The notes: a model not told the origin generated them from the sequence alone. Positions 5,321 through 38,255 are shown, numbered from the stretch's first letter. The stretch is 64,000 bases of DNA from an uncultured bacterium (GCA_964626905.1 CAZVHA010000008.1:7872-71871), one strand, 5' to 3'. Numbers and translations are program-made.

Positions 5321-5800
5321 ATGGAACAACCTCATTTTGGTCTGGGCACGATTCTTGCCCTCATCTATATTTTTCTTCCCATCTTATTGGGATGGATTCA
5401 GATCAGTTACAAAAAACATTCCCACCGTGCAAAAATCGAACTATTTTTGATTTATTATCTTGTGATTGGGGTGGGTTTTTCGGGACTTCTTTCTGGCTAT
5501 TTGCATATTTTTCATCCCACTTTTGTCTCAAATCTTTTTGGATGGGCTGAAAGTCCATTTACGCAGCAAGTGGGGATGGCAAGTCTCGGTTTTGCCGCTT
5601 TAGGAATTGGGAGCATTTGGCTTGCTGATTGGAGAAGTGCAACTGGAGTTGGCTTTACCATTTTTGCTTGGCTTGCGGCCGTTGGTCGGCTTTATGCTGG
5701 TGGGAGGCCTAGCGCATTTTTTTGGTCGGACGTGCTTGTCCCTCTTGCTATATTGATTCTTTTGGGATTGAGACATCGCCACGGGCAAAAAACCAACTGA
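5321..5800 (+). CDS. Small integral membrane protein (about 4-5 TM)
   Basis: Hydrophobic helices throughout (ILALIYIFLPILLGW, LIYYLVIGVGFSGLL, LVPLAILILLGL). Preferred over the overlapping 5134..5550 frame. Confidence 0.5.
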   Translation: MEQPHFGLGTILALIYIFLPILLGWIQISYKKHSHRAKIELFLIYYLVIGVGFSGLLSGYLHIFHPTFVSNLFGWAESPFTQQVGMASLGFAALGIGSIWLADWRSATGVGFTIFAWLAAVGRLYAGGRPSAFFWSDVLVPLAILILLGLRHRHGQKTN

Positions 5801-5808
5801 TTTACCAT

Positions 5809-5987
5809 GGCTTTGTTGCATTAAAGGCGGCAAAATAACCACCGAGGACACCGAAAACACCGAGAAAAAGGGAAGCGAGAAAAAGGGAAGAAAGTGCGCG
5901 CCTCTGAGCCTCTGAGCTCTCGGTGTGCTCAGTGGTAAAATATTTACTCAAGCCTGTTGGAACTTCGGCGATTTATGCAACAACGCC
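5809..5987 (-). mobile_element. MITE-like element, family A (TGTTGCATAA terminal-repeat core), copy 1, inverted relative to copy 2
   Basis: The reverse complement aligns along most of its length with 29544-29734. Ends are ggctttgttgcatta... and ...tttatgcaacaacgcc. Flanking 9-mers are ATTTACCAT (5800-5808) and ATTTACTAT (5988-5996), matching at 8/9. Confidence 0.75.
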
Positions 5988-5992
5988 ATTTA

Positions 5993-6784
5993 CTATCCTC
6001 TTTTGAGCTCTGGGATAAAGCGATGGATGCTTTTGTCTTCGACGAGATTCATCGCTTCGAATTTGGCTTTTCTGTCTTCTTTTTCAGGCCACCACTTTTC
6101 GAGCCTTTTGATTTTTTGTGTTGATAAGTAGTACTCATCTCGGAGGGAATAGTGGTTGATTCTCAATAAATCGATCTCAACAGTTGCAGAGGAGCACCCT
6201 TCAAAGCGCTCTTTTTTGGTATTGACTTGATAAAACCCTTCAAAAAACAGTGCAGAGTGGGCGTTGTCAAACCCCTTCACTCTTTCGGGTCTGACAATGC
6301 TCTTGACATACTGATTGGTCATTTGCATGGAGGGGGTTTTGAAATTGAGCATTTCGATCAGCAACTTATTTTCTGGTATTTTCGTGACCCGTGATGTTCC
6401 ATAGACCTGCCAATTGACGCAAACGGCTCCAAACTCTTCAAACGAGCCTAAAATCTCGATGAGATTCCCCTGGGTGGGGAAGAGGAACTCGTCGACATCG
6501 AGGATGGCGAGCCACTTTGTTTTCCCGCAGGCCCAGTGGACGGCCCTTTCGTAAGCGAGACATTGCACTTCAGTCCATTCGTAGACGTCGCTATAAGAAA
6601 TGGGCCACTTTGTCAACTTTACGAGCCCTTTTTCAATGTAGGGAAAAAGGACTTTTTCTGGAGAATCCGTGCTGAAATGGTCAAAGAGGTAAAAAAACTG
6701 GACGCCCTGAATCAAGTGGAAATCGATCCACTCTTTCAGATAGGGGGCCTCATTTTGAAAAATAGCTGTAAGGGCAAGTTCCAT
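5993..6784 (-). CDS. Glycosyltransferase, GT92/DUF23-like
   Basis: FQNEAPYLKEWIDFHLIQGVQFFYLFDHFSTD and LAILDVDEFLFP (DxD-type) follow the GT92-type pattern. Confidence 0.55.
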   Translation of the reverse strand: MELALTAIFQNEAPYLKEWIDFHLIQGVQFFYLFDHFSTDSPEKVLFPYIEKGLVKLTKWPISYSDVYEWTEVQCLAYERAVHWACGKTKWLAILDVDEFLFPTQGNLIEILGSFEEFGAVCVNWQVYGTSRVTKIPENKLLIEMLNFKTPSMQMTNQYVKSIVRPERVKGFDNAHSALFFEGFYQVNTKKERFEGCSSATVEIDLLRINHYSLRDEYYLSTQKIKRLEKWWPEKEDRKAKFEAMNLVEDKSIHRFIPELKRG

Positions 6785-38060: not shown

Positions 38061-38255
38061 GGGTGTGTTGCATAACCCCCCATCCACGTTTTTGTGTAAT
38101 GAAGACAGCATCAACGATAAGAACGATGTAACGATATGAACGATAGTGCATTACAAAATATTTTTATCGTTTACATCGTTATATCGTTCCACCGTTTTTT
38201 TGGATAGTTGGGAGAAGGTCGTCTCTATGAGCAACAGGGGTTATGCAACACACCC
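38061..38255. mobile_element. MITE-like element with a family-A terminal-repeat core, copy 3 (195 bp): perfect 19-bp TIR and perfect 9-bp TSD, with a different interior
   Basis: gggtgtgttgcataacccc at 38061-38079 equals the reverse complement of 38237-38255. CTGATTTGG occurs at 38052-38060 and 38256-38264. The interior is rich in AACGAT/ATCGTT inverted repeats. Confidence 0.85.

Follow-up and report, generated by a model that had tools for sequence, protein, structure and literature searches.

A chimeric miniature element between convergent genes of an uncultured chlamydia, and its probable descent from IS903-group insertion sequences

Results

Gene context and anatomy of the element

The stretch of DNA analysed here (the window) comprises 64,000 nucleotides of the genome of an uncultured bacterium (contig C8:7872-71871), and at 5809-5987 on its plus strand it carries a 179-bp non-coding element located exactly between the stop codons of two convergent genes. 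This element, referred to below as copy 1, is very probably a miniature inverted-repeat transposable element (MITE), a non-autonomous derivative of an insertion sequence (IS) of the IS903 group, IS5 family. The host assembly (G000, contigs C1-C11; other G numbers denote the other genomes compared and L numbers the extracted loci) is 1.72 Mb long in 11 contigs, with 47% G+C and an estimated completeness of 94.8%. The host is an uncultured chlamydia, since it falls in the same order as named metagenome-assembled genomes (MAGs) of Waddliaceae and Rhabdochlamydiaceae.

The upstream gene (5321-5800, plus strand) encodes a 159-amino-acid protein of the DUF6790 family and ends in TGA at 5798-5800, and the downstream gene (5993-6784, minus strand) encodes a GT92/GT2-like glycosyltransferase of 263 amino acids, the TAG stop codon of which appears as CTA at 5993-5995. 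Copy 1 is flanked by the 9-mers ATTTACCAT (5800-5808) and ATTTACTAT (5988-5996), which match at 8/9 positions; the chance of at least 8/9 for one pair is about 1e-4. The first base of the left 9-mer is the A of the DUF6790 stop codon, the single nucleotide that the two share, and the GT92 stop codon lies wholly inside the right 9-mer. An initial annotation of this DNA had described a 179-bp element between convergent genes with a duplicated target overlapping both stops, and the sequence confirms it. The gap between the two stop codons before insertion was 5 nt, and because the 9-bp target was duplicated at the stops, each of the convergent genes kept its own intact stop codon.

The terminal inverted repeats of copy 1 are 13 bp long, with GGCTTTGTTGCAT on the left (5809-5821, plus strand) and ATGCAACAACGCC on the right (5975-5987, minus strand); GGCTTTGTTGCAT and GGCGTTGTTGCAT match at 12/13 positions, the first 10 nt of the left repeat are those of the IS903B inverted repeat, and the right end read inward is GGCGTTGTTGCATAAATCG. 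Further inside are two hairpin arms, both given on the plus strand: a left arm ACCACCGAGGACACCGAAAACACCGAG (5838-5864) with three CACCGAG-type boxes at a 9-nt period, and a degenerate right arm (5910-5936), similar to that of the type A elements described below, in which CTCAG stands in place of CTCGG. The arms pair imperfectly with each other around a 45-nt loop that contains no gene, and the predicted folding energy is -55.5 kcal/mol (z -2.4), compared with -83.3 kcal/mol (z -7.9) for a second copy in the window. Only spurious overlapping open reading frames are present within the 179 bp, and an Rfam scan of the window returned four tRNAs and no family match at copy 1.

A dispersed family with 9-bp target duplications

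BLAST and motif searches of the host genome recovered about 30 related elements on eight contigs, which have GGnnTTGTTGCAT ends in common and fall into three subfamilies. Type A elements are 191 bp long and number eight, including the second copy in the window (copy 2; 29544-29734, minus strand), which represents the canonical form; four other full-length copies are 97-99% identical to it. Type B (about 200 bp, about 15 copies) is bounded by 57-bp inverted repeats, GGCCTTGTTGCATTAAAGGCGGTAAAATAACCACCGAGGACACCGAAAACACCGAGG, and type C (195 bp, four copies) has the ends GGGTGTGTTGCATAAC. Copy 2 is located between the convergent genes of a hypothetical protein and an EamA transporter and is bordered by a perfect 9-bp duplication, AATAGGATA, at 29535-29543 and 29735-29743. 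The window also contains a type C element (38061-38255, plus strand) with a perfect 9-bp duplication CTGATTTGG and AACGAT-box arms. Internal inverted arms of three boxes with a 9-nt period occur in all three subfamilies; types A and B have CACCGAG as their box, whereas that of type C is AACGAT.

Comparison of the flanks throughout the genome identified 12 family members with 9-bp duplications matching at 8/9 positions or better, each with a different 9-mer. Duplications of at least 8/9 were found for 6/6 type A elements, with copy 1 counted in, and all four duplications of type C are perfect; for type B two are perfect and several match at 6-7/9. As every copy has a different 9-mer, the flanks are not part of the repeat, a possibility that had been left standing at first. 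The right-end 20-mer of copy 1 occurs twice in the window against an expectation of 0.01. Copy 1 is short and non-coding, has terminal inverted repeats and a duplication of fixed length and variable sequence, and belongs to a set of dispersed copies, which are the features by which MITEs are recognized; together with the genome-wide count, these bear out the MITE reading of the initial annotation.

The insertion itself can be seen at a type A copy on another contig (C1:148784-148974), where two paralogous genes stand in tandem and the copy follows the first of them. The other gene runs on uninterrupted as "...cataaaacgGTATTTTGCatcagcattgcgatgg..." with a single 9-mer GTATTTTGC, and this paralogous empty site shows that the type A copy was inserted with a 9-bp duplication.

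Two subfamilies in one element

Copy 1 had been described as collinear with the reverse complement of 29544-29734 (copy 2), and the description is valid for the terminal 13 nt and for 5876-5987, the last 112 bases, which are of type A and 88% identical to copy 2. The intervening 5822-5864 is not homologous to copy 2 and matches type B at 91-98%. Bases 1-56 of copy 1 (5809-5864, plus strand) represent a complete type B end module of terminal repeat, spacer and left arm, which is 91-98% identical to both ends of the about 15 type B elements and of a 727-bp cassette carrying a GxxExxY gene (98% in the alignment with the cassette ends). In the alignment, the loop of copy 1 resembles that of a short-loop element at C1:487050.

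The two internal tandem duplications reported for copy 1 are real and occur in no other copy: GAGAAAAAGGGAAG x2 in the loop (5862-5890, plus strand; units 5862-5875 and 5877-5890), with a 15-bp period, and CCTCTGAG x2 at 5901-5908 and 5909-5916. The former falls on the junction of the type B-like and type A-like halves. The earlier suggestion that copies 1 and 2 differ through divergence after transposition does not hold, as the difference comes mainly from chimerism of two subfamilies. The alignments show that copy 1 is a chimera and not merely a drifted type A element: its left end is of type B and its right half of type A, and it most likely arose through recombination in the shared loop. 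It is an older, decayed insertion.

Relationship to the IS903 group

IS903B is described as having the left inverted repeat (IRL) GGCTTTGTTGAATAAATCGAAC..., the right inverted repeat (IRR) GGCTTTGTTGAATAAATCAGAT... and a 9-bp direct repeat (PMC10569121), and its copy in E. coli SK1144 has the same ends as published and the duplication GGTTAACTA. The right end of copy 1, GGCGTTGTTGCATAAATCG, matches the IRL of IS903B at 17/19 positions, and over its first 18 nt it agrees at every position with the IRL of a two-gene Waddliaceae IS (L075) described below. IS903B-like transposases, 36-46% identical to the IS903B protein, were found in 125/401 genomes of the same order. The chlamydial IS903-group elements are about 1.1 kb long with ends of the form GGCnTTGTTGC(A/G)nAA, often with perfect 9-bp duplications, and one of them (L077) has an IRL, GGCTTTGTTGCATAATTCCT, with 20/21 positions in common with the type A left end. 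These ends are common to about 20 IS903-group elements, both chlamydial and from other bacteria (Acidobacteria, cyanobacteria and Aeromonas).

Among the chlamydial relatives of IS903B, the highest scores belong to 1564-bp elements with two genes, identified in two Waddliaceae MAGs (G122 and G143), with similar ones in G182 and G269. Their order is IRL, arm (ACCACTGAGACCACCGAGCTCACTGAG), a GxxExxY gene on the minus strand, the transposase gene, a second arm and IRR, as in the example at L075 944-2507 from the Waddliaceae MAG MFD05684.bin.1.376 (G143; further loci L110-L119, L072 and L074). The GxxExxY protein has 135 amino acids (TIGR04256, 147 bits; PF13366) and the transposase 314 (NF033579, 289 bits). 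Each genome has about 29 candidate matches, with protein identities of 98-100%. Of the 10 loci examined, eight are bordered, at the same ends, by perfect 9-bp duplications, so the whole two-gene unit transposes. In a related element, L121, the arms are present and the GxxExxY gene is absent.

The host genome contains a 727-bp cassette without a transposase gene (C2:151110-151836), in which type B ends and arms enclose an intact GxxExxY gene (TIGR04256, 152 bits). The protein that it encodes shares 58-67% identity with the passenger proteins of the two-gene elements, and the right end module of the cassette is tandemly duplicated with an 81-bp period. Of the cassette, positions 1-84 and 558-639 are still present in the type B MITEs, and these include the final codons of the GxxExxY gene. 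A decay series from two-gene IS to passenger-only cassette to MITE is thus visible in these sequences.

GxxExxY genes and box arms in other genomes

GxxExxY genes were identified in 28/61 relatives. Tight inverted arms of 30-214 bp bracket them in about 22/30 chlamydial loci, most without IS903-type ends, with boxes of the types CACnGAG, CGCAGAG, AACGAT and CAGGAT; the same bracketing was found in 7/7 loci of Acidobacteria and Saprospiraceae genomes. The periodic boxes around the GxxExxY genes (L189-L225), each of 7-9 nt, differ in sequence between paralogues. In the host, a GxxExxY gene on C7 (C7:54720-55043) has AACGAT arms like those of the type C MITEs, and a third such gene (C2:56995-57351) is located beside a possible degenerate IRR of the IS903 group (GCGTTATTGCACAAATAGCTGCGGATGAGG). 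Copy 1 has inverted box arms of the same design as these loci and no GxxExxY gene between them.

In G046, an IS427-like IS5-family element of about 1470 bp (L238 2198-3668) with about 40 near-identical copies carries a nested, truncated GxxExxY module, consisting of arms and a C-terminal fragment of 64 amino acids. Gene-less hairpins stand alone in G017 and G042. The arms appear, from their recurrence in these loci, to belong to a GxxExxY module that has become lodged in insertion sequences repeatedly. The function of PF13366 has been given as "Unknown" (PMC3424549), and a literature search on GxxExxY, PF13366 and TIGR04256 found no report of mobility or flanking repeats.

Other repeats and rejected candidates

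A fourth, unrelated MITE family has the ends TTATTAACCCGGCATGCAAATAGGTGACAA, a length of about 160-200 bp and about 22 ends genome-wide. Its members include C1:35835-36032, C3:4708-4865, C4:35233-35430, C4:170437-170595 and C5:18768-18966, a degenerate end is present in the window at about 26915-26950, and the family nests inside type B elements; it also explains the contig break between the end of C2 and the start of C7. Genes with a TPS secretion domain of the filamentous-haemagglutinin type form a multi-copy family, which is represented at 63128-64000 of the window, on C5, C9 and C11 and at the end of C8; the copies are 75-94% identical over several kb and located at contig ends, and they are probably another cause of assembly breaks. 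Two mutually related palindromes of about 600 bp were noted at C1:85205-85785 and C1:190089-190692.

A full IS903 copy concealed at a contig break was considered and rejected, as the examined breaks are explained by MITE copies, including those of the fourth family. A transposase located beside a MITE end in G041 (L061, L065) was likewise rejected as a parent, since it belongs to an IS4-like element inserted into the MITE. That element is inserted directly after ACCACCGG of the related MITE, in both orientations, which suggests that it targets the arm.

Discussion

Origin of the element and points against it

The element at 5809-5987 is best explained as a MITE of an IS903-group, IS5-family insertion sequence that originated and inserted in the manner outlined here, and the probability of this reading may be put at roughly 0.85. 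Comparison shows the parent lineage to be an IS903-group element with subterminal inverted arms of CACnGAG boxes, which in Waddliaceae genomes also has a GxxExxY passenger gene of the PD-(D/E)XK type. Loss of the transposase gene produced a GxxExxY-only cassette, which persists at C2:151110-151836; the type B MITEs of about 200 bp resulted from loss of the passenger gene, and type A from short-loop forms. Copy 1 unites the left end of type B with the right half of type A, most likely through recombination in the loop that the two have in common. For its mobilization, an IS903-type DDE transposase supplied in trans presumably recognized the terminal inverted repeats of about 18 bp (GGCnTTGTTGCATAAATC). 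A staggered cut of 9 bp at the 5-nt gap that separated the convergent genes, followed by insertion and repair, would have duplicated ATTTAC(C/T)AT. With a mismatched duplication and a weakened hairpin, copy 1 is best read as an immobile fossil, although its hairpin may still serve as a barrier or a terminator that separates the two genes.

Several observations weigh against this account. The inverted-repeat match and the 9-bp duplication both agree with the IS903 group, but a cognate transposase (NF033579 / PF13737 + PF01609) in the same cell is missing: neither a PF01609 scan nor a search with the IS903B protein found an IS903-type transposase in the host assembly. The protein search was also negative in five same-genus genomes, as was the PF01609 scan in four further ones. 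An autonomous IS of the kind anticipated by the initial annotation was found in related chlamydiae, where IS903-group elements combine GGCnTTGTTGCATAA ends with 9-bp duplications that are perfect. Within the host assembly the MITEs are orphans because no transposase was found, and for the same reason mobilization in trans in the host lineage is only inferred. The host genome is a MAG of the completeness given above, so a transposase copy may be missing from it. A tblastn search of the host genome with three IS903-group transposases gave only an 18-amino-acid match (E 0.4-2.3) at C5:85033-85086; a 33-amino-acid frame at C5:85033-85130, MSRRKSKAPKKLQSREYNQLLINRGSNTFWFNV, is similar (E about 0.4) to the N-terminal part of IS903-group transposases and may be a relic of the lost gene. 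When long elements with these ends and a matching 9-bp flank were sought in the host genome, only the MITEs and one chance pair were recovered. Beyond about 20 nt the type A ends diverge from those of every sampled IS, so the exact parent is not among them, and the combination of ends in copy 1 is unique in the genome. An empty site, one of the signs of transposition considered at the outset, is available as a paralogous site for the type A copy on C1, but no orthologous one for copy 1 was found in the 13 same-genus genomes searched: the GT92 orthologue is present in 7/13 of them with 54-73% amino acid identity, always beside other neighbours, and the DUF6790 neighbour was not found. Neither the empty-site junction nor the type A end had an exact match in the metagenome contigs that were scanned for them.

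Alternative explanations

It may be asked whether the mobile unit was instead the CACCGAG-box hairpin itself, a remnant of a GxxExxY module that spreads in a way dependent on the GxxExxY nuclease, with the TTGTTGCAT ends being an incidental shell. Arms of the same design do bracket GxxExxY genes in most chlamydial loci, almost always without IS903-type ends, and in all seven from Acidobacteria and Saprospiraceae; lone gene-less hairpins are known from two genomes, a truncated module resides in the unrelated IS427-like element of G046, and the arms of the type C MITEs resemble those of the host C7 gene. Nevertheless, 41/42 copies of the CACCGAG arm in the host genome fall inside elements with TTGTTGCAT ends, the 9-bp duplications are located exactly outside these ends and not outside the arms, as they also are in the two-gene IS, and it is the removal of the whole element, ends included, that restores the paralogous empty site. 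This explanation of copy 1 is hence quite unlikely. A very improbable one is that the hairpin is not selfish DNA but a functional structure (whether a terminator acting in both directions, a determinant of RNA stability or a gene for a small RNA) that the host maintains at a selected position. That copies 1 and 2 are both located between convergent genes, that canonical copies fold very stably (z -7.9), and that U-rich tracts (TTATTTT) can be read in the sequence after the arms would all be in keeping with such a role. The hairpin of copy 1, however, is degraded (z -2.4), there is no Rfam match, a scan for promoter and simple terminator consensus sequences found nothing inside the element, and no element is located downstream of the GT92 orthologue in same-genus genomes, while full-length parents, terminal repeats and 9-bp duplications of variable sequence are enough to explain the dispersal without any function.

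The chimeric structure raises the further question of whether copy 1 was created during assembly of the MAG by joining type A and type B reads, given that its combination of ends has no counterpart and that the assembly is interrupted by MITE copies at other places (the starts of C3 and C4, and between the end of C2 and the start of C7). Copy 1, in contrast, is located 13.7 kb inside a 76-kb contig, has matching 9-bp flanks of its own, and possesses private features, namely its two tandem duplications and CTCAG variants, that are seen in no other copy, which makes an artefact scarcely credible.

Comparison with known elements

The MITE reading of copy 1 has a close parallel in MITEAba12 of Acinetobacter, which is 113 bp long, AT-rich and without a long internal hairpin, and the parent of which, ISAba12, is in the same genome (Adams & Brown 2019, PMC6382973). 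Both are short non-coding IS derivatives with imperfect terminal inverted repeats (about 16 bp in MITEAba12), 9-bp duplications and presumed mobilization in trans by a DDE transposase; the elements described here differ in their length of 179-191 bp, their box-repeat arms, their three subfamilies and chimera, and the lack of a resident parent. With IS903 and IS903B (IS5 family, Enterobacteriaceae) they have in common the 9-bp duplications and an inverted repeat of the GGCTTTGTTGAATAAATC type (17/19 with the right end of copy 1), and the transposase model NF033579 is common to IS903B and the chlamydial parent elements. IS903, however, is an autonomous element of 1057 bp without arms or passenger, and the chlamydial transposases are only distantly similar to that of IS903B (the 36-46% identity noted above).

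Mobile insertion cassettes, such as MIC231 of the Bacillus cereus group (IS231/IS4), and passenger-carrying or 'transporter' IS are established categories of mobile DNA. The 727-bp cassette is like the former in consisting of IS ends around a passenger without a transposase, and the 1564-bp Waddliaceae element is like the latter in being an IS with an extra gene; unlike MIC231, they belong to the IS903 group, and their passenger is a GxxExxY PD-(D/E)XK gene within its own inverted box arms. Hairpin-forming bacterial MITEs include Correia elements, which have a TA duplication, RPEs and bcr1. These resemble the present elements in their nearly full-length hairpin, their intergenic or gene-end location and a possible terminator role, but have other ends and duplications, whereas here the hairpin can be traced to the subterminal arms of a defined IS lineage.

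Implications

The locus itself is ordinary: an orphan IS903-type MITE, an element of known kind, landed harmlessly between two genes. Of wider significance is the complete decay series, from two-gene IS through cassette, MITE of about 200 bp and short-loop MITE to chimera, the parts of which are found in one small chlamydial genome and its relatives, and which shows the rise and recombination of hairpin MITEs in obligate intracellular bacteria. The presence of near-identical type A copies (97-99%) without a resident transposase suggests either that the enzyme was lost recently or that it was supplied from outside.

The arm-bracketed GxxExxY module is a more novel lead than the MITE itself. One tentative possibility, doubtful as it stands, is that the CACCGAG arms are the footprint of an undescribed selfish module, consisting of a GxxExxY PD-(D/E)XK nuclease gene and inverted arrays of 7-9-nt boxes, that crosses phyla (Chlamydiota, Acidobacteriota and Bacteroidota), rides at least two IS types (the IS903 group and IS427-like elements) and leaves gene-less hairpins behind. 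The boxes would then be either recognition sites of the nuclease itself or an RNase III-type processing stem, as around 23S rRNA intervening sequences, and if this were true, either role would make GxxExxY a homing-type or accessory transposition nuclease and not a housekeeping protein. GxxExxY genes that are regularly bracketed by box arms and travel with transposases offer a testable handle on the function of this family.

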